Part shown: positions 38,301-64,000 of the stretch, one piece after another | How the letters are laid out: the number at the start of each line of letters is the position of its first letter | How positions within the stretch are numbered: position 1 is the first letter of the stretch | NCBI GenBank assembly: GCA_038126035.1 | Contig: JAYPEY010000013.1 | Coordinates: forward strand, 9,547-73,546 | Direction of reading: 5' to 3' | From: Verrucomicrobiales bacterium | Lineage (GTDB): Bacteria; Verrucomicrobiota; Verrucomicrobiia; Limisphaerales; JAYPEY01 | Length of the DNA stretch: 64,000 bases | Translations under genes and position numbers: made by a program | The notes under the pieces: model-generated | What the model was told of the DNA's origin: nothing | What the model saw: only the letters and a program-made list of their open reading frames with translations | Database searches by the model: none

Positions 38301-41300
38301 CAGCGGCAGCGAAACCGGCGGCACGGCCGGCGGTGACACCCTGATGCTGGGCAACCTCAGCGTCAGCAACGCGCGCAGCTACATTGATGTGGAGTTCATT
38401 CCGACCGCGGGCAACACCCTGAACGACGCCTCGATTCTCGACGCCAACGCCGAGTTCAATCTCACCGGAACGGCGGCCAATGGCATGACCGTCAACGGCG
38501 CGCCCAGCAAGCTGGCCGATGGAACCTTCCGCTACTACGTCATGGGCATGAGCGGATTCGCGCCGGGTGAACTCTCCGTCGATTTTGTCGCCGACACCTT
38601 CACCGATTCCACCGGCATGGCCGGCGGCAACACGGCCTTCAGCCAGAAGGTCACCGTGCAGGGCGCCACGGCGAACGTGGTCTCACCGCTGCTCGGCGGC
38701 ACGGACGGACGCGATTCGGTCAACAATCGCGGTTATATCGAGGTCGTATTCGGCGCCACGGAAGGCAATGAGCTGGATCACACGACCATCGACGGCGATG
38801 AAATCGTCCTCAAGGACGCCGATGACAATGAGATCACCCTTTCCGCTCCGACCCGCGTCGGAACGACCGACGCCTATCGCTACGCCTTCTCCGACACCCT
38901 GACAGTCGGCGAATACACCATCGAGGTTGTCGCCGGCAGCTTCAGCGACGATGGGATGCAGACCAATCTCGGATTCACGGACACCGTTGTGTTGGAGGGC
39001 GCCACCGCCGGACTCGTCGATCCGGGAGCCGGCGAGACCGTGAATCGCGAGGATCTGGAAACCCGCGGCTACATCGACATCACCTTCAACCCGACCAACG
39101 GCTACGCGCTCGACGCCGCCTCCATCACTGACGCGGGTCAGGAGTTCACGCTCACCGGCGCCGGGGGTGAGAACATCATTGTGAACGGCGCGCCCACACA
39201 ACCGGGTGATCTCGCCGGAACGAACACCTTCCGCTACACCTTCGATGGCATCCTCAACGTCGGCGTGCTGTCGGTGAACTTCACCGCCGACAGCTGGCAG
39301 GACGCCGAAGGCAACATGGGGCAGGCCTCCACCGACCAGGTGAAGGTCATCACCCAGGCCGAATCCTTCTTCATCGAACTCTCCGGCGGCGTGATTCTCA
39401 ACGCGGGCGGACTCCTGGATGAACCGCTGATCGAACTGGCCGCCGAGGTCGTTCTGGAGATCGATTTCCAACGGACTGTCTTCAAGCTCGATTTCAACGG
39501 ACAGCTGAAGGTTTACAAGCTCGGCTCCGTCGGCGCCACAGCGGGTCGCTTCATTCTCGACATGAGCAATGAGCTCAGCCCGGATCCGCAGTTCTGGGGT
39601 GTGATGACCCTGGAGACCAACTTCAGCTTCCTGGAACGATTCGGCGTTTTCATGTTCGCCAAGGGCACGTTGCAGATCAATACGACCGAATTTGAAAAGA
39701 CGGAGACGCTGACCTTGAAGGGGCTCGGCCCGGGCGGATCCGACATCACGCGGACCTTCATGCTTCAGCCGCAGACCTTCCAGTTGGAGTTGCTGGCCCA
39801 GTTGCGCATCCGTGTGCCGGATTCCGACACCGACCTCTTCCGGTTGAATGGCGGCGTCTTCCTCAAGATCAATCCGCAGAAGTTTGAGCTCTTCATCACC
39901 GCCGAGCTCTCCTTCGGCATCGGCAGCGCGCAGATCACCTACGGCAGAGTCACCGGACTTCTTGTGATTGTCGCGGAACCCGACCAGCCGGGCGGAATCC
40001 CCGGCGTCGCCGGCCTGTTGAAGGTTGGAGCGGGCGCCGATATCGGACTTCCGAATGTCGAGCTCTTCTCCGCATCCGGATCGGTCACCGTGATGTTCAA
40101 CACCACGCTGCAGGACCAACGGTTTGAGATTCCGGAGTCGTTCCATGCGCTCCTTGGTCCGGACGATCCCACCGTCATCAATATCTTCAAGGCGGCGCCG
40201 ACCTTGGACGGATCGGAGAACACCGGAGCCACGGCGGAAGTCTACTTCTCGGTCACGATCGAGGCTGAACTGACCATCGGCGGCGTCCTGACCCTTACAG
40301 GATTCCTGCAGATCCAGGTGGCCGCCGGCGCTGGAGCCGCGGCCGGCGGCGCCGGCGGTCGATTGACCGTCAACGGCGCTGTCAGTGGCGAGATTGAACA
40401 CCTGGGCGCCATCACCGGCACCCTGAATTTCCACGTCTTCCTGGGCGCCAACACGGGAATTGTCGGCCGCGTGCACCTGACCCTCGGCGTCAATGGAATA
40501 CCAGGGGTCGATATCAATGGGCAGTTCCTGCTCGAATTGAACACCTTCGGAACGGACATGGATGTCGAGACGTTCGACGTCAATGTCGATGCCGAGGGCA
40601 ACTTCAACGGATTCAAGCGCGACGCCGACAACAATCTTGTCGTCACCACCGTAACCCTCAAGCCGGGCTTCCTGTTGATCATTCGGGGCGAAGTCGTCCT
40701 GGCCGACACCATCACGCTCGAAGGCTACTTCCTGCTGGAGATCCGACCGGACAAACTCGAGGTTCAGGCCTTCGCCCGACTCGAACTGGGGCCGATCGGC
40801 GAGGTCAAGGTGGTCGGTCTGCTGCGGATCGACGCAAGCGGCCTGGTGGCTCACGTCAGCCTGATGTTGGATGCCGGCATCGGCGGCGACATCGGACTCA
40901 AATTGACCGGGACGGCCCTCGTGGAATTCAATACGACCGGCAGCGCGCAGTCGTTCACCCTGCAAAATGGCGATGTCGTCACCGTCGATTCCGGTCTCCA
41001 CATCTTCATCATGGGCGCCGTCGACTTCCTCGGGTTGGCGAAGGGCAGCGGGTCGGTGGACATCCGGATCAACGCCTCCGGATTCAGTCTGATGTTCGAC
41101 GTGCAATTCGACCTTGCCGGACTGCAGTTCAAGGCCAAGGGCGTGGCCGCGGTCTATACCGACGCGAACGCGGGCCTTGTCCTCGGTCTTGCGGTCAGCT
41201 TGAGCGCGGATGCGGATATTTTCCTCATCGAGGCCAGCGGCATGCTGGAGATCAACACCACCGGCATTACACGGAACGGCATCCTGCCCGGATTCCTGCT

Positions 41301-44300
41301 CGACGTCAGCGGGAGGGTGGAACTGCTGAAAGTTCTCAAGTTCAACGCGAGCTTCAAGATCGAGGTTGGACGAAGGACCCTCGCCGACGGCACGAAACAG
41401 ATCGCGCCCGGATTCTGGCGATTCGACTTCTCCGCCATGATCGACTTCTTCGGCGTGTTCAACATCATGGGCAGCGGCTGGGTCGATTCCGATGGCAACT
41501 TCTCGGTCAAGTTGAGCGGCAATGTCCTTTTGGGAACCCGATCCTTCGGTCTGGAGGGCAACTTCAACTTCGAGGTCACCAGCATCAACCAGAAGGACGC
41601 CACCGGAAATCCGTACTACAAGTTCCACCTCGGTCTCAGCGCCGGCGTCAAGGCCTATGCCTTCGGTTTCACCCTCGCCAGTGTCAGCCTGGCAGCCGCG
41701 GTCGATGTCGAGGGCGCCGGTCGCCAACCGATCAAGTTGAGCGTCGAGTTCAAGATCAAGTTCCTGTTCTTCACCTTCCGGGCGACTGCACGGTTCAATA
41801 TCGGCTATATCGAACTGCCGAAACCGGTCTACCTCGCCGGGCAACCCGGAACATCAAAGGTGGTGTCCAGAACCTGGGATCCGAACACCGGCGGGCCTCT
41901 GGTGCTCAATATGGGCGACGTCCGCGGCAACTACCGAAACCTTGCCGACGGAGCTCCCGACGAGGTCGTGCTGGTCACCCAGACCAGCGGCGACAGCCGC
42001 CGCGGCACGCTGAAGGTCAATTCGCTCGGCCGCACCCGCACCTACGACAATGCCACCGACCTCCTGGCTGACATGGGCGGGGGCAACGACCAGATCTACA
42101 TCGACGACAGCGTCATGCTGCCCTTGCTCATCAATACCGGTGGCGGCGACGATGTCGTCGTCAACAACGGTTCCGGTACGGTCACCATTCTCGGCGGCGA
42201 CGGCGATGACTACCTGCAGAGCGACAGCGCCAACACGGTCCTGATCGACGGCGGCGGCGGCAAGGACTACGTCACCTACACCAATGACGCCGGCGGAGCT
42301 GTCGTCCGGGGCGGCAGCGGCGACGATCAGATCTTCGGCAGCAGCGGACCCGATACGATCCATGGCGATTCCGGCGACGACATCATTGTCGGCGGCGGCG
42401 GCGCTGACACGATCTACACAGGAACCGGCAGTGACGTGGTGAGACTGGACTCCTCTTCCGGCGGCACCGTGATTTATGCCGATGACGGCGGCGGGGAACA
42501 GGACTTCGTCGTCATCAGCGGAACGGATTCAAACAATACGATCGAGCTCAACCGCGGCGCGGGAGCCCGCCAGGTCGATCTGCTGCTCGACGGCGCCATG
42601 ATCACCGGCCACGGCGTTGAAGACTACACCATCGACGCGCGCGCCGGCGCCGATTCCATCCTCGTGGGCGACCTTTCCGGTCGCGGAGTGGAATCCATCA
42701 CCGCCAATCTTGGAAACAACTCCGCCAACATGGGCAAGATGATCGATGATGACGGATTCGAGGTGGCCAATATCGCCTTCTCCGACGATGGCGCGCGCGA
42801 TGTCATCACCGTCATGGGCAACAGTTCCAATGATCGTTTTGTCGTGTCGCCGGAGAATCCCAATGACACAACGCGTCTGTTTGAGGAATACCGCGTCACC
42901 CGTGAAAACAATTACCGGGTCAATGTGATCAACAGCAAACGGTCCGAGGGTGACCGGATCATTGTCGATGGCCAGGGCGGCAATGACTTCATCAATGCGG
43001 CGCCGTTGAACCGGGAGATTGTGAACGCCGACGATCCGCGTGTTCAGGACCTCGCAATCCTGGAGTTCCGCGGTGGCGACGGCCACGACCGTCTGATCGG
43101 CTCCCCGTTCAATGATGTGCTCGACGGCGGCGCCGGCGACGACACCGTGACCGGCGGGCTGGGACTGGATTCCTTTGCCGATGCCGGCGGTTTCGACACC
43201 CTCGACGAAACCTTCGATCACGACTTCGCGATCTTTAACAACTACTTCATCGTGGGCGATCTCCTGGGCGACACGGGCGATGCGGACTTCTCCACATCGC
43301 GTCCGCGCAGCGAGGACACCCTGAAGGATCTGGTCCGCGAGGAGGATCCCGACTTCAACTTCTTCAGCCGCGGCGACCGCTTCCGCGCCGGCGCCACGGT
43401 TGAGGAACTGCATGACATCTTCGACTACACCGTCCTCAAGGGCGGCGAGAGCAACAACACCATCGTCATCGGCGACATCGACGGAATTGTCTCGGTCGGT
43501 TCAACGAATCTGACAGTGACGCCGTGGCTCGGCGGCGCGAATCTGGACAACGGCCCGAACAACGAGAATCCCTACACCGAGTTCTACATTGTCAGTCTCA
43601 CGGGAACGGGCGCCGGCCGTGTCACCATCAACGACAGCGGGCTCCAGTCCGGCTTCGATCACGTGCTCGTCCGCGGCACCAACCAGCCCGACATCCTGAC
43701 TCTCGACGCGGCCGGGAGCGGCTCCTTCCGGACCGGAATCGTGACCTTCGGAGAGATCACCAGCCCCGATCGCGACATCCTCACCTTCCGCAATCTGGAG
43801 CGCGTCACGGTCGACACTTTTGCCGGCAACGATCGCGTCCTCAGCAATGACACCGCCCGCGTCACGATCATCAACATGGGCAGCGGTGACGACGAGATTC
43901 TCATCGGCACTGTTCCGCTGATTCCGGACAAGGGCAATCGCACCCTTGAGTTCCCTGAAGGCGTTCCGGTGGCTGACACCGAGAACATGACCAATGGCAA
44001 CTCGGCCAATCTGTATGTGCTCGGCGCCGACCAGAACGACCGCTTCGAGGTCAATCACAACAAGGCCAAGCTCTTCCTTCACGGCGGCGCGGGCAATGAT
44101 CGCTTCCTGCTCAAGACCTTCCTCGTGCTGAAGGAGGACGCCAACAATCCGGACGATGTCACCAACCTCGCCGCGCTCTTCGGCGGCGCCGGGTTCAATC
44201 GATACGAGTACCTCCAGAATGCCCCGGTCGAAATCAACGGCGGTCCGGGCATCGACACCATCGTCATCGTCGGTACGCCGATCGGCGACATCTTTGTCAT

Positions 44301-47300
44301 CACCGACCGCTATATCGCGGGCGCGGGCCGCATCGTCAACTTCAGCAACATCGAGGCCCTCGAGGTCGATGGCGCGGGCGGCCCCGACGAAATCTACGTC
44401 CTCAGCACGAGCGAGAAGTTCGAGACCTCGGTGGTCGGCGGCTCCGGCGACGATATCATTCACATCGGCGGCGACCATCCGCCGATCGTGTTCGACCCGC
44501 CGGCCTACACCTACACGCCGCCCCCGATCGAAGTGCGCCTGCCTCCCGAAGTGGAATGGGAGGACTTCATGTTCGATCTGAACGGGTTCAGCTTTGAGTT
44601 CTCGCTGGGCTTCTGGGACAGCATCGTGAACGCCTTCTCCGGCGGCGATCTCGCCCAACTCGCGGCCCGTCAGCTCCTGCAGGACAAGGTCAATGCCTGG
44701 GCCGCCGCCATGGAGAACACCCTGCCGTTCTTCCGCACCCTCGGCTTCGACATCAATTCCGCCCAGATCTCCGTGCGCCAGCGGCTGACCTTCTCGTGGT
44801 TCGTGCCGCGCACCAAGGTCGAGGTCCGCGTGAGCAACTTCCAGATCCCGTATCAGATTGGCGCCCTGGTCGAGCGCACCAAGCTCATCCAGCCGCCGTC
44901 CATCACCGTCGATCCGCCGCTCTTCGCGTTCAAGGACGACGCCTCGCGTGACATCGCCCCGATTCGCGGCCGCCTGACCGTCCGCGGCGGCGACCAGTTC
45001 GAGGAGGATGGCGACACCATCATCGTCCACAACCAGGAAGGTTCCTCGCTCCCCGGTTTCCTGCGGACGCGCACGACGCCGCGCATGATCCAGATGGGCG
45101 AGGACAACTTCGGCAATCCGATCTATGTCCAGGACAAGGACGAGACTGGCGCGCTCCTGACCGACACCTTCCGCAGCATCGAAGGCCTCGGCCAGTACGT
45201 GAACCCGGACACCGGCCGCCAGGCGCAGGATACCGTGGTCTATCATGGCATCGAGCTCGACGGCATCGAGATCGTCGAAATGCGCCTTGCCGATGGCAAC
45301 GACGACTTCACCATCGACGCCACGCCCGCCAACACCCCCGTCACCCTGCAGCCGGTGCAGGTCCGCGTGATCGGCGGCGCCGGCGACGACACCTTCCGCG
45401 TGAAGGAGATCAGCGACACGACGACGCTGCTCGGCGGCGCCGGCGACGACCAGGCCATCGTCCACAACAACAATTCCCTGAACACCATCGGCGCGCGCCT
45501 CATCTTCGACGGCGACGCCCACATCGACGAGCAGAGCAACCCCGTCCCCGCGGATCAGGAAGGCTTCGATCAGCTCCTCGCCAACTCGCCGAAGATCTTT
45601 TGGGAATCCGAACTGCTGGATCAGAACTTCACCGATGGCGCCGGCACCACCACGAACTTCTCCCTGCCGAACCTGCAGCCGATCATCTTCAAGAATGACG
45701 ACAACAAGGTTGGCCTGCGCGCCGCGGTGGTGAACCAGTTCGGCGAGGTCGTGGAGAACCTGGTCCATGAAAAGGGCGTCCAGAAATATGGCGTCCAGAA
45801 GCGCAATGCCTCCAACCAGTTGCTCTACTATGATTCCGACGGAGCCGAGGTGACCGAGAACACCGACGTGCCCGTGATCGTCCAGGTCGCCAAGGACTTT
45901 GTGGACGCGGCCACGGGCATTGCCGCCCGCCCGGTCTTCATCAATCGCGAGGGCCACGACGTGTTCATGGACAACACGGGTTACGGCCTCTTGGGCGAAT
46001 ACTACCAGAACCAGAATTTCGAAGGCACGCCCTACACCCGCGTCGATGATACGGTCAACTTCTTCTGGAACGACGGCCAGCCGCACGACAACCTGGGTCC
46101 GGACAACTTCTCCGTGCGTTGGACCGGCCTGGTGCAGCCCACCTCAACCGGGACCTATACCTTCTACACGAACACAGACGACGGCGCCCGCCTCTACGTC
46201 GACGGCAAGCTGCTGGTTGAAAAGTGGCTGGACATGGGCACGACCGAGCACTCGGGCAGTATCTATCTCGAGGCCGGCCGGACCTATGAGATCAAACTGG
46301 AGATGTACGAAAACCGGGGCGCGGCGACCGCCCAGCTCAAATGGTCTGGACCTGGCGTGTCCAAGCAGATCATTCCCAAGTCCCAGCTCTATCCGACCGT
46401 CTACCCGATCAAGTCGATCATCTCCGACTTCGAGAGCCCGGACGCCGAGTTTGTCTACCTCGACAAGGATGGAAACCGCGTGTTGGGCAACGAGGCCTAC
46501 CTGGCGGTCGATCGCACCGTTCAGACGCAGATTCCGTTCTTCTTCAACACCTTCTTCGGACGGTTCTTCCTCGGAACCTTCACGCAGAACATCACCGGCG
46601 ACTTCAATGTCTACGAGACCGCCGGACTGGTCGAGTTCGATCGCATCGATGTCCAGGTCAGCCTCGACGGCTCCGAATGGCGCAGCGTCAAGAGCAGCGA
46701 GCAACCCGTGATCCGGATCAATGGCGACCAGGATCTCGACGGCAACCAGTACGGTCGCTCCTATGACATCGGCGTCAGCGGCTGGGATCGCATCCGGTTC
46801 ATCAAGATTGTCGGAACCAACAGCGCCGTCGGCGGCTTCGATCTGGACTCCGTCGGCATCTTCCACTCATCCCCCGGTTCCTCGGTGTTCCCGACGATCA
46901 TCGTGAACTCCAAGGGCAGCAACCTCGTCAACGCCACCGGCGCCCCGAACGACAGCGGCGTGGCCTTGGGCGATACCCGCGAGATCATCTTCGCCGGCTT
47001 CGCCCCGTCGTTGATTCCGGTCCAGCAGATGCGCGAGACCGTCTGGACCCAGGTCGAAGACACCCACCAGACCATCACGCAGGATGCCGCCGGCAACGAT
47101 TACGTGGACACCATCATTGTCCACGATTCGGCGGACACCGCGGATGAGACGGGCGCCATCGAAGACTATGAGATTGCCGTGCCGGTTCTCGTTGACGGGC
47201 TGGTCGAGTATCACAACGGCGTCTGGGACGAGGTCAATGAGGTCGCGGTCGCTCCGATCGCCCGTTACTACGTCGGCGGTGAGCCGGTCCTGGATCCGTT

Positions 47301-50300
47301 CACCCGCGAACCGCTCGTCTACGTCGGCGGCGAGCCGGTTTTCGACGTGTTCGCCAAGATCATGGATGGAAGCGGCAAGTTGGTTCCCAAGCCGATCGTT
47401 GATATCAACGGAGTCCAGCTGGAACATGCGGCGGGCGATCCAGTCCTCCACTACGCCGGCGATCCAATCGTGCAGTTCTCCGGGGATGTCGTGCGCTATC
47501 TCGGCGGCGAACAGGCGCTCGAGGAGGACGGAACGCCGGTCTTCAACGCCGACGGTTCGGTGTTCCGCAAGGTTGGCGGACAGGTTGAGATCCACAGCCG
47601 TCGCGACCTGGTCTACAACCTGATCGATGAGACCGGCAAACAGGTCGAACTGGGCGAGATCTACACGCCGCCCACCTTCCAGAATGCCGGCCCGAACGAC
47701 ACCCTGAGCCTGCCGGTGACCAATGATTTCGCCTACGACCTGAAGTCCGACGACATGGTCTCGGTTGTGGTCATCGACGGCGGCAGAATCTTCCAGTTGC
47801 CCGCCGATGAGTTCAGCGTGAACGCAGCCGCCAACACGGTGGTTTTGACCGCCGCCCCCGCCTCCTTCACCGGCAATGTCACGGTCAAGCTGAGCATCGC
47901 CACCAAGGCCAGGCACGCGGCCGGCGATCCGCGACTCTACTTCGGCGACGAGGCCGTTCAGGTCGGGCAGCCCAAGGTCGATTCCATGGGCGCCCTGCAG
48001 ACCGACGAAAACGGCGACGTGATGCTCTACACCTCGACCTTGGATTCACGCGGTCGCCAGATCTTCCACAAGCGCGGCGAGCCCATCTTCCAGTTGAAGG
48101 CCGGCGTCGTCGGCAACGGCCCGTTTGAGACAGATGACTTCGAGGTCCTGACCTACGTCGGCGGCGAGCAGAAGCTGCGCCTGGGCAATGAGGCCGTCCG
48201 TTACGTCGGCGGCGAGCAGAAGTACTACACGAATCAGGATCCCCAGGAACAGACGGACGATTATCTCCGGATCGCCGGTCTGGGCATGACCCAGGACGTC
48301 CTGTTCAAGGGCTCGGACAAGGTCACCCTGCGCCTCGGTTCCGGTGACGACTCGTTCCAGGTCAAGAGCTCCGGCGTCAATGGCGACGACGCCGAGATCT
48401 TCCTCTACACCGGCGCCGGAAATGATGTGATCACCGTCCGCTCCGATTACCACTCCCTGGATCAAATCATCGGAACGATTCACATCGATGCGCAGGGCGG
48501 CGATCATAACGAACTCCTGATCAGCGACGCCCACGATACGGACGCCAATCCGGCGGGCGTCGTCACCGACAATTATGTCACCGGCCTGGCACCGGCGGAC
48601 ATCTTCTACACAGCCGACGGTGGTTGGTTCAAGAGTGTCTACGACGCCGGCGCGAAGAAGTTTGTCCCGTCGATCACGGTCTACGGCAGCAAGGCGGGCG
48701 ACACGATCGAGGTTCGCACGACCCGAAACAATCTCGCCGCCCGAGAGGTGACCGAGGTGAACGGTTGGGAAGGCGGCGACACCATCACCGTGACGCATCA
48801 GTTGCCTCGTTACCTGGTTGTGCGCGGCCACACCGGCGGGGACACCCTGAACGCCGAGGCTGCCCGCGTCGGCATTGAAATCTTCGGCCACGATGGCGAC
48901 GACACCATCACCGGCGGCAGCGGCCACGATGTTCTGGTCGGGGATGACGGCATCGACACCATTGTCGGCAACCAGGGCAATGACGTCCTGTTCGGCGATC
49001 ATGCCGTCATCGAGCGCGAGATGAACTTCAACCTGCAGTTGCTGCAGACGACCAATGACAACGATGGCGGTAACGACACCCTGTCCGGCGGCGCGGGCAA
49101 TGACGTTCTGTTCGGCGGGACTGCGGTTGACACGCTCAGCGGCGGCGTGGGTGAGGACATCCTCCTCGGCGACGGCGGCGAGGCCCGCCTGGAGTCCGGC
49201 ATCGTTGTTCGTGTGACCGCCTCGAACCACGCTGGTGACGGCGGCGATATGATCGATCAGACCGGTTCCGAAGGCGCCGATATTGCGTTTGGCGGCACGG
49301 GCAATGACAAGATTTACGGCGGTTCAGTGGACGCCAGCTCCGACATCCTCGTGGGCGACAACGGCGTGGTCGTCCTGAACGAGGCGGCCAACACCCCGGC
49401 GAACTTCGATATCTATACCCATGAGCCGACCTTTGGCGGCGTCGACACCATCGACGGCGGTCTGGGCGACGACTTCATCCTGGGTGGCTCCGGCGGCGAC
49501 GATGTTGTCGGCGTTGATGGCGACATCCTGACCGGCGGCCACGGCCGTGATGTGATCGTTGGCGACGGCGGCTATATCACTCGCGACGCCTCCGGCAAGG
49601 TCACCCAGATCGAATCGAAGGATGAAGGGGTTGGCGGCGACGACAAGATCGACCAGACCGGCGCCGGTGGAGCCGACATCGCGATTGGCGGCGCCGGCAA
49701 CGACAAGATCTACGGCGGCGAGACCGACACTGCGACCGACATTCTGCTCGGTGACAACGGCGTGGTCTACTTCAACGTCGGCGATGACGACTTCAATTAC
49801 GACGTCTCGACAACGGCCGCTTTGACGGGGGGGGGCGACACCGTTGACGGCGGATGGGGCAATGACATTGTCATCGGCGGCGCGGGCGACGACACCCTGC
49901 GCGGCGGACGCGGAGCCGACGCCATTCTTGGCGACAACGGTTACATCTGGCGCGACGCCGCCCTGAATGTGCGTCGCGTCGAGACGAGCGATCCGGAGCA
50001 CGGCGGAAATGACACCATTGACGAGACCGGATTCGAGGGCGCGGATGTCATCTTCGGCGGCACGGGCAACGACGATATCTATGGCGGCACGGCGACCGAG
50101 GGCGATGTCATGATCGGCGACAACGGCGTCCTTGCCGGCGGTTCGCCGCTGATTGTGCCGGACGCCAATCTGAACGGCGGCGTCGACGTGAATGACACCT
50201 ATACCAAGGACGGTGAGCACGGCGGGAACGACCGCATCTTTGGCAGCCTGGGACCGGACACCATCATGGGCGGCTCCGGTGATGACGATCTCTTCGGCAA

Positions 50301-53300
50301 CGCCGGCAACGACACCATCTTTGGCGACGGCGGCTACATGGATCGCAATGACGGCGGCAGCCTGATCACGCTGCGCACCCATGAAGCCCAGTTCGGCGGC
50401 AACGACCAGATCGACTACATGTCCTACGACAAGAACTTCCCGCACGATCAGTCCGCAATCGCCGCAATGGCCAACACGGCGGCGGCCCTGGGCAATGACC
50501 TGATCTTCGGCGGCACGGGCGGCGACACCATCGACGCCGGCCTGGAGTCGATTTCGCACCGCATCTTCGGCGACAACGGAATGATCGATGTCGCCAGCGG
50601 GAGGCTTGAATCCACGGACCCGACCCGCGGCGGTCCGGATGAAATCACCGGCAGCCCCCTGCGCGACTTCATCATCGGCGGCGCCGGCGGAACGGACGCG
50701 CCGGGTGTCGACGGCGACACCATCGCGGGCATGTCCGGCGACGATGTGATCCTCGGCGACGGCGGACGTATCGTGTTCGACGCCTTCGGCGACCCCGTCA
50801 CCGTGGAAACGCTGCATCCGACCGCCGGCGGCGACGACCTGATCGATTCGATCGCCCTGCCGCCCGGCAAACGCGCCTACAATACGGAGTACAGCGCGGC
50901 GTTTGGCGGCGATGTGAACGAGGGCGCGGATCTGATCCTCGGCGGCAACGGCAACGACCTGATCGAGGGCGGCGAAGTCGATGACAGCGTGGACGTGCTG
51001 ATCGGTGATAATGCCGCGGTCGAGGTCGCCAAGCTCGCGGCCTATGTCTCCGTCGTGCTCCTGGACAACACCACCTTTACGATCACCGGCGCGTTCGACG
51101 GCATTGTGACCACTTCGACCGAGGGCGGCGATGACGACCTGCTGGGCGGTCGCGGCAACGATGTCCTGCTCGGCGGTCCGGCCAATGACCTCCTGGTCGG
51201 CGGCGTTGGCAACGACGTCCTGCAGGGCGAGGCCGGCATGGACGTCATGTGGGGCGGTTCGCTGCTGCTCGCCGAAAGCCACTTCCGCTTCGTGGACGAG
51301 GCGGATCGGGCGACCAAGCTTGATGTGCCGCCGAACTGGGCCGCTTCCGAGGCCGCGCAACCGACCGGTTTCGAGCCCGAGTTGCTGACGCCCAAGGCCC
51401 TGGCCGGGTTGTCAATTCAGGGCGATGTCATGGACGGGCGCGACGTCCTGCTGGGCGGACCTGATTCTGACTGGCTGTTCGGCGGCGGCGACATCGACGG
51501 TCTCTATGGCGGCCTCGGCGACGACTACCTCGACGGCGGCGTCCACAACGACTACCTGCTCGGCGGTCCGGACAATGACGTGATGCTCGGCGGCGACAAC
51601 GACGACATCATGCGCGGCGACTTCAACCTGGCCGGCGAGTTCTCGACCGATGGAACGAAATTCAAGGGCGTTGATTCCACGGTCGAATACGACTTCACGA
51701 CCGCCGGCAAGGACCAGATGTTCGGCGGCAAGGGCAGCGACCGGATGTTCGGCGACGGCGGCCCGGATTCGCTCCGCGGCGAGCGCCTCTACGGCGGCGA
51801 CGATATCGACTTCCTTTACGCCTACTCGCACACGACCGGCGCCTCCACGCCGGCGCAGTTCCAGGCGGAGACGCAGATCGGCGGCAGTGAACTGCACGGC
51901 GGATCCGGTTCCGACTGGCTCTACGGCGGTATCCGGGCCGACATCCTTTACGGCGACAGCGGAGCCGAGTTCATCCACGGCGACTGGCTCTACACCCGCC
52001 GCTACGCCATCAACCCGAACGCCGACACCCTGGGCGGCGACGACAAGCTGTTCGGCGGCGGCGGCGAGGATCAACTGCTCGGCGGCGGCGGCGACGACGA
52101 ACTTTGGGGCGGCGCCAATTCCGACTGGCTCCAGGGCCAGGAGGGCAATGACAAGCTCTATGGCGGCGGCAACATCGACATGATCGTTCTCGACAGCGAT
52201 CCGAACTACCGCAACTTCGGCGATGTCTTCGACGGTCACTATGGCAACCAGTTCCAGTCCGACACGCTGGACGACAACGCCACCGACATCCTGCTGATCG
52301 AGGGCTCCGACAACCGCGACACCATCCTGATGTCCGAGGAGTCCGTGATTCTTGGCAATGTGGAGGTTCCGGAAAGCGGCATGATCGCCGGTATGGCGAC
52401 CTTCACCCTGACGCTCGGCCAGAAGACCCAGACCTTCACCGATGTCGATCTCAGCCTCGGCATCGACAACGCGGTGGACGCCTTGAACGTCGCCCTGCAC
52501 GCCGGCAACAGCCCGTTCTTCAACTACGAGGACGCCAACGGAAAACGTCACGGATACGTCGAAGCCGTGCGCCGGGGCATGAACATCGCCTTTGTCACCC
52601 GCAATCAGGGCGACGACACGACCCTTACCATCAGCGGGGCGAACGACTACGTGAAGAACGTCCTCGGCTTCGACATGGCCGGGACCGGCCAGGATTCCGA
52701 GAGCTACCTCGTCGTGGACTTCTTCGTCGGCGGCGTGACGGACATCTCCTTCGACCAATGGCCGGACCGCGGCATCACAACCTCCGCGCCGATCCATTTT
52801 GTCGCCCTGACCAAGTGGCGCACCGCCAGCGGCGATCCGGCGGTCGAGCAGTTCCGCATCTCCGGGCTCGGCGGCAACGACACCCTCGGCTTCCTGCCCG
52901 GCGCCGCGGCGGTCGATATGACCGTCCTCAGCGAGCGCAGCTTCGACTGGGCGGGCGTGATCGATGGCGGCCCGGGCAATGATACGCTGCTCGGCTCCTC
53001 TGGTCGCGACCGTCTGGACGGCGGCTTCGGTAGTGACACGATCTACGGCTTCGACGGCGATGATCGCCTGTTCGGTGACGGCGGCCCCGGCCAGGGACTG
53101 ATCGGCGACGACGACTGGCTGTTCGGCGGCTCGGGCAATGACGACCTGATCGGCGGGCAGGGGACCAACCGCCTCTACGCCTGGCCGATCGATCCGAACA
53201 TCGGCGGCGTAAACGACACCGCCATCACCGAGCTCAAGTTTGAGGATGGCCTCGAAGCCTCGGTCACCGACACCAACCGCATCGCCAGCATCCTGTCGAC

Positions 53301-56300
53301 GGCCGACGTGCCCGTGGATGGCATCCTGACAGCGGATGCGCACTTCGCCCTCGTCATCGGCGGACGCCTGTTCGACGTCGTCGTGCCGAAGAGCGCAACC
53401 GACGGCTCCGCCAATGTGGCCGACGACCCGAACGCCAACATTGACGACCTGGTCGCCGACATCAACGACGCCATCGACAACGCGTTGAGCATACCGATGG
53501 GCGCGGACAACGGCCTGGTGCGCGCCACCCGCGCCGAGGATGTCAACGGCGGCAAGCTCAACCGGATCGTGCTTTCCACACTCGGCACGACGCTCAGCAT
53601 CACCAACCTTGGCGCTGGCAACCCCGCCGCGACGGAATGGAACCTCGCCCAGGGGCAGTCCTCGATCGAGGGCGTCATCACGGCGTTGGGCGCCGCGCCG
53701 GCCGATGGAAAACTCAGCGCCGGCGACGCCTCGCTCCAGTTGCGCAACAACATCACCAGCGCGACCCTCACGGTCCTCATGGCTGACACCGCCGACAATG
53801 AGACGCTCGACGACCTGATCGCCGACCTCAACAAGGTGATCGCCTCCTCGCCGTTGGCCGACCAGGTCATCGCAGAGAACAGCGGTGGCCGCATCCTGTT
53901 CCGCTCGCTCACCACCAGCATCAAGCTGATTTCGAAGTTCGGGGTGTTCATCAACGAGGAAACCGGCCAGTTCTTCAATCACGATGGCAACGGCCTCTAC
54001 AAGGAGGTCGACACCGGTCTCAACCGTTCGCTCGGCAGCCCGAACGACGATTGGTTGTTCGGCGGCACCGGATTGGATTTCCTCTATGGCAATGGCGGGA
54101 ACGACACCCTGTTCCGCGCCGACGGCACCACCTTCGATTCGCTCGACGGCGGCCTGTCCGGCGACGCATGGAAGGAATACGCGAAGGAGAGCGACAAGGT
54201 CTGGTACTACCGCGCCACCAACGCCGACGATGTCATCAACGTCGATTTCGTGACCGAGCCCGGCCTGTTCCAGGACCTGCACCTGATCACCCGCCTGACC
54301 AACAACAACGGCAACTACACTTTCGCCGCCCAGGTGAAGCTCAACTTCAACGCCACCGACGACGCCGGCAACCCGATCTGGAATCCGGTCGACGCCTACA
54401 CCGACTTCAGCGCCCTGCGCAAACAGGCCGAGATGGGCGAGCCGGTCGATTCCGGCAACTCCATGGCCGCGGCCAAGCTCGAATACCAGCAGCAGGAGAT
54501 GGAGGCAAACCTCCTGCCGCCGGAGGGCGACTTCATCGCCATCATCGTCGACGCCCTCGGTGGCAACGACCAGATCAACGTCGGGCCCACCGTGCAGAAG
54601 ACGGTCTGGGTGGACGCCGGTCCGGGCGACGACACCGTGCAGTTCACTTCCGGCAACGCGATCCTCAGCGATATCGCCGAGCGTCCGCACCGCAACGATA
54701 TCCCGGACTTCGCGACCGCGCTCGGATCGGCCGCCTTGATCTCCCGCGCGGACATCACGGACTTCAAACTCGGGTTGATCAGCGGCGAGATCGCAAAGTT
54801 CAACCTGAAACTCAACGGGTCCAATGACGCCTTCGTGATCAGTCTGCCGTTCGACGGCCTGACGGGCGTCGGCGACAACATGGACCTTGAAGACCTCGTT
54901 GAGGATGTGAATGCGGCCCTGACCTCCTCCGACCTCGCGACCAATGTGAAGGCCGTCGCCATGGGCGGTCGCCTGGCGATTGTTCCGACCCTTGGCGGCA
55001 ACGTGGTCTCAATCCAGATCACAGCCAATGCAGACGACAACAATCTTGGCGAGGGCGTCGTGGATTCAGCGACCATCGCTGCCGCCGCGTTGACCGCGGC
55101 CGAGGGCGCCGCCGCGCGATGGGCCTCCTTCCGCCTGAGGCCGGCCGGCTACAAGAACGATTTCATTGTCACCGCCGCGATCCCCGGCGCCGCGGCCAAC
55201 GGGGCGACCATCGTGTTTACATCGGATGCGAATCTCGCCGCCGACGAGGCAACCGCGACCTATGACGCGGGCGCCAAGGTGTTGACAGTCACATTGAACG
55301 ACGGCGTGACCACCGCCGCCGCCGTGGTCGAGGCGATTGACGCCCTGAGTGACTGGGACGCCGCAGTCGATGCGGTCGACTCGGATTCCCCGTTGACGGA
55401 ATTGCAGTTCAAGTCGGGCGATGTTGCCGGACAGGCGATTCTCGTTGGTTCCGGCGACGCGCCGATTCATGGCAGGCTGACCACGGATCTCGTGTTCGGC
55501 GTCCGATTGAACAATGGCGGCGCCGTGAACATCACCGTGCCGGCGGGAGTGACAAACGGTTCCGACGGCGCGCCCAACCGTTCGCTGGATGACCTGATTT
55601 CCGACATCAACGCCGCCATTGATGAGGCCGGATTGGAGACAACGCTGCGCGCGGGCCGCATCGATGATCGTGTCCGCATCTACACGATCGCGCCAATTCA
55701 GAATCCGACCGTTTCGCTGGTCATCTCGGAAAGCAACGCGATGATCGACCAGTTGCACTTCGCCGACGGCCAGACAGCCAAGGCGATCTACGTGCTCTCG
55801 CGCAACACGAACCTGACCGGCCTGACCATGGACAGCGCCACGGATGTGGACTACTTCGTCTTCCAGTTGGGCTACATTCCCAATGGCACGCCGCGCATCG
55901 AACTCACCAGCGCGTCGCCGCTCGACGGGCTCGGACTTTCGATCTTTGACCTGAACCAGTTGAACAATTTCGGAACCTTCTCGCCGGTGGCGGTCAGCCC
56001 CGACGGTCCGGATCTCGAGAGCTCCGGCAACAACTCCATCGCCGACGCCTACCTCCTGCCCGATATTCGCGATCTCGGTCGCATCCAGCATTTGAACCTG
56101 CATTCGGCTACGGACGAGGACTTCTTCTACTTCGAACTGGCGACCGACGCGGTCGAAGGCGACAAGATCAGCCTCCTGCAGACCGGCGCCGACGATCTGC
56201 TCGAAATCGCCGTTCTCGACGACGAAGGGAACGTGGTCATGTCCAAACAGGCCGACACCACCGAGGGAATCGCGGTGACGCTGCCCTTGGACGGCCTCAA

Positions 56301-59300
56301 GAAGGGCGACCACTACCTGCGCATCAGGCAGGTCTCCGCCAACACCGGCCAGGGCACGGTCGATACCGACGACCTGAAGGACAATCTCGGCCTGGCTGGC
56401 GGCGACGCCACGACCAAGGCCCTGGGCGTAGTCGACGCCAAGGGCGCGCAAAACGCCTTCACCGTGATGGCGAACGCATTCGGCGTCGCGTTCAACGGCG
56501 TGAAGATTGTCTTCCAGACCGGCGGAACCGCGGGTTCCGAAACCGCCGTCTACAATTCGGGGACCAAGGAGTTGACGTTGACGATCGAGGATGGCGTCTC
56601 CACGGCCGCGCAGATCATGAACGCCATCAACACCGACGCGATGGCCGCGGACTTCACCGCCGAACTCTACGAGACCGGACGCGGCTACGAGCTCTTCCCG
56701 GCGGTCGGCGGCAATGGCTACACCATCCTGAATCTTTCCGGCCAGTCCAACGGCTCCATCTCTTTGAGCGCGCCGCTTGAGGCCCACACGCCCTACCTGC
56801 TGAAGATCGACTCGCCGAACGAGGTGCCGACCATCTACAGCCTCAACTTCATCCTCGAGCCGACCGGCGAAACGCAGACCGTCAACATGGCCGCCTCGGT
56901 CAACACCGTCCGCAAGGATGTCATCCTTGGCGGAACCGGCCACGACCGCCTCCAGGGCGGCAGCGGCGAGGACTGGATCTTCGGCGGTCCCGGCAACGAT
57001 GTGATCACCGGCGGCCTCGACACCCAGAAGAGCGACCTCCTGTTCGGCGGCCCCGGCGACGACACCTTCCAGATCCTGACCGACTACCTGCCGAGCCTGA
57101 CCAACAACCCGGACGCCACCTTCATCCCGACCACCGTGGATCGCCTCTACGGCGGCGACGGTGACGATCGCGTCCTCTACCAGGGCGGCGATCTCGACAA
57201 CCTGAGCCGGCCGATTCCGGACTTCGCCTCGATCCGGTACAACCGGATCCTGCATCGCTACGAGTTCACAACCCTCCTTTGGGACACCGCCAATCAGGAA
57301 TGGGTCGAGGAAACGCTGCCCGGTTCCTCGCTCGTCGCCGAAAACAGCCCCGAAAGCGTCGATGGCCGCCTGGACTCGGATACGACCTTCGAAATTGTCC
57401 TTGGCGGCGTGAATTACGCGATCACCGTGCCGAAGAACCTGGGCGACGGCATCCTCACGGGCGGCAACGTGGTCGATCTCGACAACGGCGTCAGCCGGAC
57501 CTTCCGCCTGAGCCTTGGCGCGAACGCCCAACTGACCGTGACCGTCACCGGCACGGCCGGCGTCGACACGGCCTCCACCTACGCCGTGCAGATTCAATCG
57601 CAGATCGACGCCAGCGCCCTGGCCGGCAGCGTCACCGTCGAAGCGGACGGCATGGCCTTGAAGTTCCGCGTGCAGGGCATCGTCGAGGCGGATGAACTGA
57701 GCGTCGGACTGGCCCTCGGTTCCATCGCCGTCGATCTGACCGATCTCGGCTTCAATGGCGCCGGTCAGAGCGCGCCGATCAACAATTCCGCGGGAGATCT
57801 CGCCAAGGACATCAAGACCGCCATGCTGAAGGCCATGAATCAGGCGACCGGCATGATGGAGGATCTGACCGATCGTCTTGCTGTCGGCTCCGACAAGGGA
57901 CGCCTGGTCTTCGTCACCAAGGAACTGGCCAAGGATGAGGCGCTGGCAATTGGGTCGTCGGTCTACCTGACAGCCGTGAACGCGGCGCCCGCAAACTTCC
58001 AGTTGCTGGCTGATGCTGTCTTCAATCTGAAGGTTGGCGGGACCAGTTACGCCGTCAACGTCACGATGGCGAGCACAGCCGGCAACGCCACGCTGGCGGA
58101 CCTCGTCGCAGACGTGAACGCCGCCCTGACGATGGCGAACGGCAATGCGAATGACATTTCCGACAAGGTTGTCGCGCAAGCCAGTCAGAACGGGCGGATT
58201 ATTCTTCGGACGATCGGAGCCTCCCCGGCCGCGACGCTGATGATTGTTGGAGCGGCGCCCGCTGAACTCGGGTTCGTGGACAATCAAGGGACAACCACAG
58301 AAACGGCCAGGCTGGGCCTGACCGCCGGACAGCAGGGAGTCATGCGCCGGGTCTTTACGCAGACCTACGCCTACTACCAGATCAACGAGGTCGAGCGCAC
58401 CGTCATTGACCTGCGCTCCGGCAACGACGTCTTCCGCGGCGACGCTGAGTATGTTTTCCGCAACCAGGATGAGGAATGGGGCATCAAGGCCGGCGACGTG
58501 CAGCAGGGCGGCGCGATCTCCAACCTCGAGATTCATGGCGGCGCGGGCAATGACAGGCTCTTCGGCGGCTACTTCGACGATCTGATCTTCGGCAACGACG
58601 GCAATGACTTCGTGGCCGGCGGCCCGGGAGACGATGTCATCGACGGCGGCCCCGGGAAGGATCTCCTCGCCGGCAACACCACCTCGCAACCGGATGACTT
58701 CGAGTTCGTCACGCGCAACCTCGTTGATGGCCTGAACGATGACGTCAACTTTGCCGCCTTCCTGCCGGATCTGACCGCCGGGCTCGAGGTCGACGGCCTG
58801 ACCTTCCACGAGGGCGATTCGGGCGATTGGTACCTGATCCGCACACCGGAGCCGCTCAAGCAGGTCCTGGAGCCAGGTCAGGGCTGGCTGACGCAGGAGA
58901 TGATCTCCGTCGTGTTCGATGACGCGTTTGAGAACGACCTGTTCAATAACCTCGGAAGCGGCCCGATCCTCGACGACCTCTCGAAGCTCAACAACACCCG
59001 CTACTTCCTCTTTGCGGCCCAGGACACGGACGCCGGCGAGGCCTTGTCCGTCGTTCCGGTCGAGAAGTTCAGCGGCATGCCGGAATACTACCTCCTCCAT
59101 GTCGTCAACCTCCGCGCGCAGCAGGTCAAGGCCGTCGATGCCGGTCCCTCAAACGGACGCATCCAGGACCCGTCCAAGGCCGACGACGACACCGCGAAGT
59201 TCACCCTGATCCTCGACGGCGCCGCCCACGTGATCACCGTCAACGACGACGCCTCCAACACCACGCTCGATCACCTGGTCGACGACATCAATACCGCCTT

Positions 59301-62300
59301 CGTCGCGGCGAACATCGGCGACCTGGTCTTCGCCTATAACGAGCTTGGCAAGATCGTGATCAGCCGTGTGGACGCCGGCTCGATCTCCTTCACCGCGGAC
59401 CCCGGAACGGCCGCCAATGTGCTGGGCTTCCTGCCGGTGGACACCAATGCAGGACGCAACCCTGCGATGGGAGGCTACAAGCTCGTGTTCAGCGAGGCCG
59501 TCGGCAAGACGATCGAAGTCGCGCCGGCCGCCGCCAACCTCACCATCAACTCGCAGTTCGCCGCCTATCGTCCGGTTGTCATTCCGCTCGGCGACATCAA
59601 CGGCGACGGCTTCGGGGACTTCGTCGCCGGCATCAGCGACAACATCTTCGGCACGGGGCCGACCCAGGTCCGCATTTACCTCGGCGGCCACATTGATGAG
59701 GACTTCGACGGCGACGAGATCTTCGATGTCGGCGAGGATCTCAACGCCAACGACAAGTTTGACACGGCCAGCGCCTACTTCCTGAACAACTCGGACTTCA
59801 CGCTCGCCCTGCCGGCGCCCGTCCTGCGTGAGTCGGTCGGAACCGCCACCGCCAAGCTGCGCAGCTTCTTCAGCGAGCCTGGCGATGTGAACGGCGACAA
59901 CGTTGACGATATCGTGGTGACGGTCACGCGGATCGACGGCGGCGCCAGCTCGGCGGCGGCTGTCTACGTCCTTTACGGTCGGGCCAATGATCCCGCGACG
60001 CCGCAGCCGGATGGTTGGGCCGCCAATGTCACCCTCGCCACCGCTGCGGATGTGACCGTGGATGTGCCGGACATGGCGACGGGCAGAATCGCAGCCGCAA
60101 TCGTTGGCGACCTGAACGGCGACAACAAGGATGACCTCGCGGTCAGTCGCGACAACACGCTTTATCTGAAATCCGGCGCGGCGCTGGTGGCCGCCGAGAC
60201 CCTGACCGCCTGGACTGACAGTTACACCCTCGGCGGTGGAGTGTTGGGCGACTTCGGTGGCGTCGGCGATTTCAACGGCGACGGCAACGACGACTTTGGC
60301 GTCATCGACGAGACGACCGACCGCCTGCATGTCATCACGAACGAGGCCTTCACCGGTGACACCGTGGCCCTGAATACGACTCCGGCGGCGATGCGGTTTG
60401 ATCACACCGCCGACCTGGACGGCTATTCCATCGTCGCGCTGGGCAACCTCAACAAGGATCTCGATACCGGTCGTCCGATCCAGGACTTCGGCGTCACCAG
60501 CCAGGCCGGCTCCTTCGTTCTGCTGGGGCGGACGGCCAACGCAGCGATGACTCCTGCTGACGCCATCGCCATTGAAGCAGGCGTTCAGCTCGTCAATGCG
60601 GGCGACTTCAACAATGACGGTTTCGACGACATTGCGGCCGTCAAATTGGAGCGGACTCCGCGCCTGGACGAGAATGGCGGGCAGTTCGTGCACTCTGTCG
60701 GCATCCTGTATCTCGGAACGATGACGGGCATCGATCCCGCCAGCCCGAACCTGGTCTTCGAACGTTCGCAGCCGAATTACCTGGCCGAGGCCGGAGCCTC
60801 GATCCCGTCCGGACTGTTCGCCTTCGTCGGCGACGTGAACAACGTCCCGTCCGGGGCTGTCGCCACGGGAACCTTCACCTTGGCCGGCGACGTGATCACG
60901 CTGACCGCCGCCAACGCCGGCGTGATCTATGAGAATCTGGATGTGGTGATCAACCCGTCGCTTGGCGCCGGTCCTGTGACGGTGTCGATCAGCAAGAGCG
61001 GCGGTCCGGCGGCCTACGTTGTCACGGTCAACACCTTGATGGATGGCTCGACCACGACCGCCGAGGTGGCGATGGCGTTGGATACGCTGGCCGACTACAG
61101 CGCGACCGGCGGCGATGCCACGGTTTCCGGCATGGCAATGCAGACCTTTGAAGGCGTCACCCGGACCGCGAAGGCCGGCGACGGCCATGCCGATCTGGTC
61201 CTGGCCGAGCAGCTCGGCTCCACGCTGCGCGTCTATCACGGCGCGGAACTGGAGGACTATTTCAATCCGCAGCCGACGCCGCCGTTTGTCCTGCCGCGCC
61301 TCTATCGTTTCGATCTGGCCCTGCCAGTGCTGTCTGCGCCGGATGCCAACAATTACCAGGGCATCGACATCTCCGACTCCAATGGCGTCAACAGCCACCC
61401 GGATGTCACCGAGGCCTTCGTGATCGAGGGCGTGGACGGCAACGAGCGCCTGGCCAACCTGATTCCGGTGGGCGATTTCAACGGCGACGACGCCGAGGAT
61501 TTCCTCGTCTACGGCCGCCTGCGCGCCTACCTCTTCTTTGGACCGTTCGAGACCATCGGTTTGTCCGAGGTGACGGAGCGCGCGGATCACATCTTCGACC
61601 TCGCCGCCTTCGGACAGCCCGCTGAGAAGATGGGCGACATCAACGCCGACGGCGTTGCCGATCTCGCCTTCATTCGCTACGACGCCGGAACCATGAACAC
61701 GACGGTCACCTATTTCTCGGGCGGCGTGCTGCACGAAATCCCGCGCGTCGTGAACGCAGTCGCCGACCTGGATCCGCGTTACACGCGTCAGATCGTTCTC
61801 AGCAACGCGGAAATCGACGGAGCCAACGCCGAGTTGCTCGTCCTGAACTTCCTCGGCGACGTCAACCCGGCGAACAACCTCGCCCATTCCGACATCGTGA
61901 TCGTCGGCGACACCCCGCGGAACGAAACCATCTACGGCTACATCTTCAGCGGCGACGATCTGAGCGCCGCGCCGCACGTCTACGGTCAGGCCCAGACCGT
62001 GGCCATCAACTCCGCCAGCGGCGCCAAACGCGTCGACCTGGAACTGTTCACCTCGACTTTCAGCTCGGGGACGATCAACCAGAGCATCCCGGATTCCGGG
62101 CAGGGCGTGGAGAACAACCGCCAGTCCGGTCTGATTCCGACCTCCACGGGGCGGGCCTATCCCTACACGTCGATCGACGGCGTGATGCCCGCGACCCATG
62201 CCTTTGGGTTCCTGGTAAGGGCGGCGGGCGATCCTTACCAGACGACAAACGTCGTGGCCGGAGCGGGAACCACCGCGATCTCGGATTACTCGACGGCCTC

Positions 62301-64000: not shown

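Follow-up and report, generated by a model that had tools for sequence, protein, structure and literature searches.

Tandem P-domains without a protease between FG-GAP regions of a giant open reading frame from a Verrucomicrobiales bacterium

The giant RTX (repeats-in-toxin) adhesins of Gram-negative bacteria, among them MpIBP of Marinomonas primoryensis, LapA, SiiE and FrhA, are built from a long tandem-repeat extender and a distal mosaic of RTX and ligand-binding modules including PA14, and we know of no description of P-domains in them. In integrin alpha subunits, FG-GAP beta-propellers carry an inserted vWFA I-domain. Features of both architectures are found in a giant open reading frame (ORF) on a 64,000-nucleotide stretch of DNA from a Verrucomicrobiales bacterium (assembly GCA_038126035.1, contig JAYPEY010000013.1, positions 9,547 to 73,546 of the forward strand), which we call the window. 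The final 7% of the visible ORF consists of FG-GAP sequence and four tandem P-domains, and this stretch is the subject of the present work. In kexin/furin-type enzymes, the catalytic domain is located directly before the P-domain (PMC2605481). No such domain accompanies the array described here, and we favor, with a probability of roughly 0.6, that its P-domains act independently of any protease, as binding modules and/or rigid connectors in the distal part of a giant surface fibre.

Compared with the kexin/furin-type proteases of known structure (1P8J, 2ID4/1OT5, 3HJR), the P-domain itself is homologous, and three of the four modules exceed the gathering score of the family. However, these proteases possess one P-domain and an adjacent S8 domain, whereas the giant protein has four tandem copies, FG-GAP sequence on both flanks and no S8 domain. 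The likeness to the giant RTX adhesins lies in the extender and the distal mosaic. In contrast to them, the extender is an unannotated repeat, modelled as a seven-stranded antiparallel meander with no Ig-like or other match in the PDB at E ≤ 0.001, and is not recognizable as a bacterial Ig-like (BIg) repeat, a LEPR-XLL motif and a hydrolase domain make up the N-terminus instead of a type I secretion system retention module, and the RTX blocks are internal. With the integrin alpha subunits it shares calcium-binding FG-GAP blades that have a foreign domain block between them, as far as the sequence alone can tell, but this block is made of P-domains and not of a vWFA I-domain. Protease-less P-array proteins from the databases (e.g., P0001-P0005 and P0069-P0216) are likewise tandem, with 2-13 P-domains and without S8, and often contain FG-GAP, RTX, PA14 or Ig-like stalk domains; the identity to them is 30-52%, and the giant protein is far larger and has a different extender. 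With regard to size, West-Roberts et al. (2023, bioRxiv 10.1101/2023.11.21.568195) report that Verrucomicrobiota and Planctomycetota often have proteins of at least 10,000 amino acids (aa), and the ORF of at least 20,579 aa falls within the band of 20-25 thousand aa of that study. The study centres on proteins from Omnitrophota that exceed 30,000 aa and are composed of other domains, and a term search of the preprint gave no mention of FG-GAP or of the P-domain.

Four P-domain homologues flanked by FG-GAP regions

An initial annotation, made from the letters of the window, had proposed four tandem P-domain-like modules (62290-63915), the first and the fourth with the hallmarks of the proprotein-convertase P-domain, next to at least seven FG-GAP motifs and another one at 63946. 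Profile searches bear out both parts of this proposal. In the region 62200-63999, the Pfam family PF01483 (P_proprotein) matched in four stretches with 142.7 bits (E 3.9e-42) at a gathering score of 21 bits, and the module boundaries, which were set by a local P-domain hidden Markov model (HMM), run from 62269 to 63918. All features of the ORF are given in window coordinates on the plus strand. Scored alone, the first and fourth modules (62269-62721 and 63538-63918) indeed reached the highest values, 45.7 and 57.5 bits, followed by module 3 (63124-63546) with 35.1 bits. Module 2 (62716-63114) is a degenerate member of the family, with 17.2 bits alone, and is detected by the local HMM. The modules are 26-36% identical to module 1. 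We take PF01483 to belong to the galactose-binding-domain-like clan of Pfam.

The fold was addressed with an AlphaFold2 (AF2) model of all four modules. Based on a 21-sequence alignment, it reached a mean predicted local distance difference test score (pLDDT) of 74, with values above 90 for module 1, of approximately 90 for module 4 and of 60-85 for module 3, while module 2 was poorly modelled (30-60). The top Foldseek matches of this model in the PDB were 3hjr (Aeromonas sobria ASP, E 2.4e-4), furin (1p8j) and Kex2 (2id4/1ot5), all with a probability of 1.0 over 125-159 columns, which is about one module, and 12-25% identity. As one of the four modules aligns, the whole-chain template modelling (TM) scores are low. 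A phmmer search of the four-module region against the PDB sequences gave no match, and the link to solved P-domain structures came via the AF2 model and Foldseek. The beta-sandwich fold of the furin, kexin and ASP P-domains is present in the model, with pLDDT values of about 90 and more in modules 1 and 4. Sequence and fold alike identify the four modules as true homologues of the jelly-roll beta-sandwich that is the proprotein-convertase P-domain.

The array is preceded by a first FG-GAP region (59593-61660), which belongs to the Pfam families FG-GAP (42.6 bits, cutoff 22.1) and FG-GAP_3 (33.6 bits, cutoff 26.9). A regular-expression search located seven DxNxDxxxD calcium motifs within it (59593, 59884, 60109, 60268, 60604, 61474 and 61636) and an eighth at 63949. 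These eight sites in the FG-GAP/P-domain stretch are eight of the nine in the entire frame of 20,635 codons, so their clustering is not due to chance. The spacing of the motifs is irregular, ranging from 53 to 290 aa. Between the first FG-GAP region and module 1 lies a linker of 189 aa (61702-62268), in which degenerate FG-GAP-like strands can be seen and for which no Pfam match was obtained at E ≤ 1. Downstream of module 4 (63919-63999) comes a conserved junction that leads into a second FG-GAP region; of this region, the window includes the first blade motif, GDVNGDGLED at 63949, before its end cuts the region off. The first region also includes a 127-aa insert without a Pfam match (60790-61170). 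Such an unannotated insert of about 100-127 aa, with a signature resembling '...TLTV.I..G.TTA..V..AL', recurs between FG-GAP blades; it is found before the P array here and after the P array in the homologues P0099, P0127 and P0199.

The course of the second FG-GAP region can be followed in a close relative. Contig JAYPGD010000011.1 (L001), from a metagenome-assembled genome (MAG) of a Verrucomicrobiales bacterium, was found by a genome scan and is 88% identical over the query. Its locus is open for 4285 codons and collinear with 51385-63999 of the window at 88-91% identity. It extends 554 nt beyond the equivalent of the window end, and the additional 184 residues contain no stop, nothing protease-like and two further FG-GAP motifs, GDLNGDGFDDF and GDFNADGQMDLVV. 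FG-GAP regions therefore lie on both sides of the P array. A metagenome scan with this extension returned generic FG-GAP proteins alone, at approximately 30% identity. The contigs of three relatives, L001, L082 and L083, stop no more than a few hundred bases from the window-end equivalent, and the sole contig reaching further is L084, which belongs to a distant homologue. Exact matches to the last 32 nt of the window were absent from the genome and metagenome contigs searched, and an exact-protein search with the kinase encoded upstream of the giant ORF was negative as well.

The comparison with L001 also allowed us to estimate selection segment by segment with the Nei-Gojobori method. At a dS of about 0.5-0.6 per segment, the dN/dS ratio was 0.084 for the RTX part, 0.082 for the FG-GAP region, 0.114 for the linker 61702-62268 (88.4% identity), and 0.091, 0.153, 0.178 and 0.131 for P-domain modules 1 to 4, respectively (module 2 with 87.9% identity). 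All four modules, including the degenerate module 2, are under purifying selection.

Absence of a protease and database spread of the cassette

In the initial annotation, no D-H-S subtilase motifs had been seen in the 60 kb upstream of the P-domains, and two options had been left open: either the P-domain fold is reused, be it for repeats or for binding, or a catalytic domain is located beyond the window. Domain searches now covered the whole visible part of the giant ORF (2263-63999). In a profile scan for P_proprotein, FG-GAP and S8, the first two matched and the third did not, and Pfam yielded neither Peptidase_S8 (PF00082) nor any other catalytic peptidase in the ORF. A jackhmmer search that started from subtilisin BPN' and from the S8 domain of P0012 did not match the ORF either, while the same search detected S8 in 17 control proteins. 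In the position directly N-terminal to the first P-domain, where kexin and furin have their S8 domain with its Asp-His-Ser residues, FG-GAP sequence and the linker of about 190 aa are found. The S8 domain, which defines a proprotein convertase, was looked for and not found, and the giant protein is therefore not one of these enzymes. A hidden metalloprotease, considered on account of weak matches to serralysin and ZapA, was discarded because the alignment was confined to the RTX part of those proteins.

The second option can be widened to any way in which the P-domains would nevertheless serve a protease: a catalytic domain could follow in the ORF beyond the window, or a protease encoded by another gene could dock onto them. 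The ORF does run on beyond 64000, with its end outside the window, and some of the best database matches of the array do contain a peptidase, namely S8 in 17 of 150, and M8, trypsin or reprolysin in a few. However, FG-GAP sequence and not a catalytic domain precedes the array, at variance with the convertase order (PMC2605481), and L001 continues with FG-GAP sequence for 184 aa past the window-end equivalent. In the homologue P0199 (contig L084), 940 aa of FG-GAP blades and other repeats follow the P array without a peptidase, and in the adjoining 10 kb, three same-strand ORFs are free of Pfam peptidases as well (in order, no match, no match, and RTX with Laminin_G_3). Given the protease-free downstream sequence in P0199/L084 and the FG-GAP continuation in L001, a catalytic domain just past the window is unlikely, as is a more distant one downstream, and we regard service to any protease as very improbable. 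Thus, of the two options the reuse of the P-domain fold is favored.

The arrangement itself is conserved. A cassette of FG-GAP region, P array and FG-GAP region, with or without PA14, is kept at 30-52% identity in P0084, P0092, P0099, P0116 and P0199, and none of these five homologues has a peptidase domain according to Pfam. P0084 is collinear with 60385-63993 of the window (E 1.5e-110), and P0099 (2,822 aa) with 58543-63999 at 30-52% identity. The sequence that leads from the last P-domain into the following FG-GAP blade, W(S/D)L.F.F.PED...GD.NGDGL(D/E)D, is shared by P0084, P0092, P0099, P0116, P0127 and P0199. Two PA14 domains stand between the FG-GAP region and the P array of P0099, and PA14 is found beside or within the array in P0116 and P0199 as well. 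While PA14 thus precedes or interrupts the array in some homologues, it lies 5,300 aa upstream of it in the giant protein. The repeated association of the cassette with this lectin domain suggests a role in recognition.

For a wider view, an exhaustive phmmer search with the 550-aa P array was run against 1.84 billion representative proteins, which resulted in 8,690 matches at E ≤ 1e-3 and 204 at E ≤ 1e-30. The best matches are proteins of up to 5,764 aa with 2-13 P-domains each, and 133 of the 150 best are without S8 according to jackhmmer. A Pfam domain census of 43 of the best matches found P_proprotein in all 43, S8 in 1, M8 in 3, trypsin in 2 and reprolysin in 1; frequent partners were CarboxypepD_reg (9), SdrD_B (8), SpaA (7), FG-GAP (5), Calx-beta (3) and GEVED (3). 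In a word-indexed homologue search, which shows proteins of roughly query-like length and through which giant orthologues are not visible, 18 of 20 matches were without S8. A protease-less P-domain array is hence not unusual but the rule among the best database matches. Among the S8-less matches, several go by the name 'proprotein convertase P-domain-containing protein' or by the misleading one 'subtilisin-like proprotein convertase family protein'. In the literature, no study of protease-less P-domain arrays was found beyond one passage in PMC9210967.

As a side observation, giant homologues in L081 (GCA_965283725.1), L082 (ENA ERZ25072999) and L084 (JGI Ga0056119_1000074) are split into abutting same-strand gene calls, for example of 1881+887+1191+344 aa and of 4187+1262+61 aa, probably due to frameshifts or stops in the assemblies. 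As giant genes are chopped in this manner, the sizes of such proteins are underestimated in the databases.

The database proteins also bear on whether the P-domains bind anything at all. They could be purely structural beads of a stalk or spacer, which extend or rigidify the region between the FG-GAP regions without any binding. Arrays of up to 13 tandem P-domains in other proteins, their co-occurrence with the classical stalk domains SdrD_B, SpaA and CarboxypepD_reg, and the retention of module 2 despite its degeneration agree with such a function. Against this, the modules are highly diverged (26-36% identity) and sit in a non-repetitive distal mosaic in which they adjoin recognition domains, homologues insert PA14 lectins beside or within the array, and a dedicated extender of 78 units is already present in the protein. 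Overall, we consider purely structural beads rather unlikely and retain the reading as binding modules and/or connectors.

The giant reading frame and its other regions

What the initial annotation did not include was the context of the flagged stretch, which is the tail of one uninterrupted giant frame. A reading-frame scan found 2095-63999 to be stop-free over 20,635 codons. The LEPR-XLL match at residues 10-30, counted from ATG 2263, fixes the probable start at this codon. From there, the ORF (2263-63999) is complete at its 5' end, comprises 20,579 visible codons and runs past the 3' end of the window, giving a predicted size of about 2 MDa and at least 20,579 aa. The GC content at codon positions 1, 2 and 3 is 0.62, 0.45 and 0.83, uniform along the ORF.

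A length of more than 61 kb is extraordinary for an ORF, and long ORFs are also found on the opposite strand (e.g., 59149-63225). This could mean that the frame is open by chance in GC-rich DNA, that the assembly has joined repeats into a chimera, or that the gene is a pseudogene. However, the 20,635 codons are free of stops, and the GC content at third positions (GC3) stays within 0.78-0.86 in 6-kb blocks in this frame only. Moreover, the repeat units described below are merely 65-70% identical in DNA, so that collapse or expansion during assembly is unlikely, several Pfam domains lie in the same frame, and the independent MAG contig L001 is collinear and open with a dN/dS of about 0.08-0.18. 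A non-functional gene is therefore effectively refuted already. The minus-strand ORFs of 1,300-1,480 aa (59149-63225, 55066-59100 and others) were rejected as genes, being shadows of the GC3-rich plus frame.

The N-terminus begins with a LEPR-XLL motif (ELESLEQRVLLSGDG; 2290-2352), which belongs to the NCBIfam model NF012209 of about 24 residues with 22.6 bits at a cutoff of 17 and is followed by an acidic linker. The closest N-terminal homologue is a 'LEPR-XLL domain-containing protein' from a Chthoniobacteraceae MAG. It is found instead of an obvious classical signal peptide. Further downstream, a lipase/LCAT/PGAP1-like alpha/beta-hydrolase domain (3259-4438) was identified from motifs and from weak Pfam matches, all below the gathering scores (DUF7379 27.7 bits, PGAP1 23.9 and LCAT 19.3). 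Candidate catalytic-triad motifs read from the sequence are HGFGGS, THSTGG, GDGTV and VGHQDL, and homologues of the domain bear PF24096 or PF02450. The nucleophile elbow THSTGG appears intact and is joined by candidate Asp and His motifs. One would not expect an enzyme where a giant fibre protein begins; type IX secretion system (T9SS) and other surface proteins also contain domains homologous to this one.

The largest part of the protein is an array of 78 contiguous all-beta repeats of about 120 aa (5350-34134), which accounts for approximately 47% of the visible ORF and presumably forms a rod or extender. Self-BLAST of the ORF gave a period of 120-125 aa, and an iterated HMM resolved the 78 back-to-back units. 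Their DNA identity of merely 65-70% indicates an old array and not an assembly artefact. No Pfam match was obtained for the repeat even at E ≤ 1, and every one of its homologues is an unnamed 'hypothetical' protein. With an alignment built from 77 internal two-unit windows, AF2 produced a two-unit model with a pLDDT of 97.1 and a predicted TM score (pTM) of 0.88, in which each unit has seven long antiparallel strands. Foldseek gave no fold match for it in the PDB or BFVD at E ≤ 0.001; the best matches were outer-membrane barrels with TM ≤ 0.35, which we regard as beta-barrel- or tail-fibre-like noise. A profile search of the PDB with the repeat resulted in one marginal tail-fibre match (E 0.007).

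The array is followed by about 2,700 unannotated aa (34135-42192), for which neither a Pfam match at E ≤ 0.01 nor a PDB sequence match was obtained. In this part, the 120-aa repeat can be recognized in no more than a few degenerate copies, at 35275-35637 and 39895-41607. RTX nonapeptide (GGxGxDxUx) blocks are then dispersed over 42193-58671. Pfam HemolysinCabind matched with 115.7 bits (7 stretches) and 215.7 bits (12 stretches), and a regular expression found 59 nonapeptide motifs clustered in this region, mainly at 42193-44463, 48913-52107, 52966-54114, 56929-57177 and 58537-58671, which are RTX repeats as in type-I-secreted adhesins. PDB matches of the region were CyaA and the RTX part of serralysin. 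Relative to the window, L001 lacks about 109 aa at 57958-58309, an indel in the RTX-rich region within an alignment that is otherwise collinear at 88-91%.

Among the RTX blocks lies a single PA14 lectin-type domain (45982-46407; Pfam PA14, 107 bits), which matched the PA14 dyad of the Clostridium thermocellum anti-sigma-I factor RsgI3 (PDB 6qe7) with an E of 3.9e-70 in phmmer. A tandem dyad in the giant protein itself was ruled out, as the two matching stretches arise where a single query domain aligns to each PA14 domain of RsgI3 and a self-search of the ORF found one copy. Within 45982-47200, PA14 is followed by a segment with a weak F5/8-type-C (discoidin-like) match of 15 bits.

The sole other gene of the window is located upstream of the giant ORF and divergent from it, on the minus strand (265-1338), and encodes a PfkB-type, KDG-kinase-like sugar kinase. 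Its best NCBIfam match is the kinase half of a KHG/KDPG aldolase-kinase fusion. The intergenic spacer 5' of the giant gene (1339-2262, about 920 bp) has a lower GC content.

Possible roles and meaning for the protein family

Taken along the chain, these regions would fit a surface fibre. The LEPR-XLL region and the lipase-like domain would be located at the proximal end, and the 78 beta-repeat units would form a very long rod that keeps the distal part off the cell. The distal third may then act as a mosaic of RTX beta-rolls, which are stiffened by calcium in related proteins, and of modules identified as PA14 lectin, FG-GAP repeats and P-domains with putative roles in recognition. The FG-GAP repeats may form propellers. 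Within this mosaic, the P-domains would be modules for binding a glycan or protein ligand and/or rigid connectors between the two FG-GAP regions, and would not be stabilizers of a catalytic domain.

Certain points weigh against this reading. The binding role is derived from the fold class and the neighboring domains, export and location at the cell surface are presumed for a protein whose C-terminus lies outside the window, and the rod role of the repeat is suggested by an AF2 model that has no experimental analogue. Furthermore, the RTX blocks are internal and not demonstrably C-terminal as in type-I-secreted adhesins, and module 2 is degenerate (17.2 bits, pLDDT 30-60).

A more far-reaching proposal, which we put forward as possible rather than probable, is that giant fibres in bacteria of the Planctomycetota-Verrucomicrobiota-Chlamydiota (PVC) group form a family with the cassette as their conserved recognition head, which would work independently of proteases and be carried on a rod of an undescribed 120-aa beta-meander fold. 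The P-domains of the cassette would bind ligands or stabilize the calcium-dependent FG-GAP regions, as they do with S8 in convertases.

By its sequence, the giant protein is another member of the protease-less P-domain class, which is annotated but unstudied, and of the LEPR-XLL class. The more original aspects appear to be the size of the gene, which at more than 61.7 kb is among the larger bacterial genes on record, and the unannotated 120-aa repeat, predicted with confidence and without a solved analogue. With no PDB neighbor for its predicted fold, this repeat may be of interest to researchers working on giant adhesins and on repeat-protein folds.

For the family as a whole, the expectation of a protease next to the P-domain needs to be corrected, since bacterial multi-copy P-domain arrays mostly occur without one. 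With 133 of the 150 best matches lacking S8, a P_proprotein match alone should not trigger the annotation as a 'subtilisin-like convertase', which several database names in the P-array family do carry. The FG-GAP/P-domain/FG-GAP cassette, often with PA14, offers an expressible unit that is testable for ligand binding, and binding shown for it would be the first experimental function of a protease-less P-domain.

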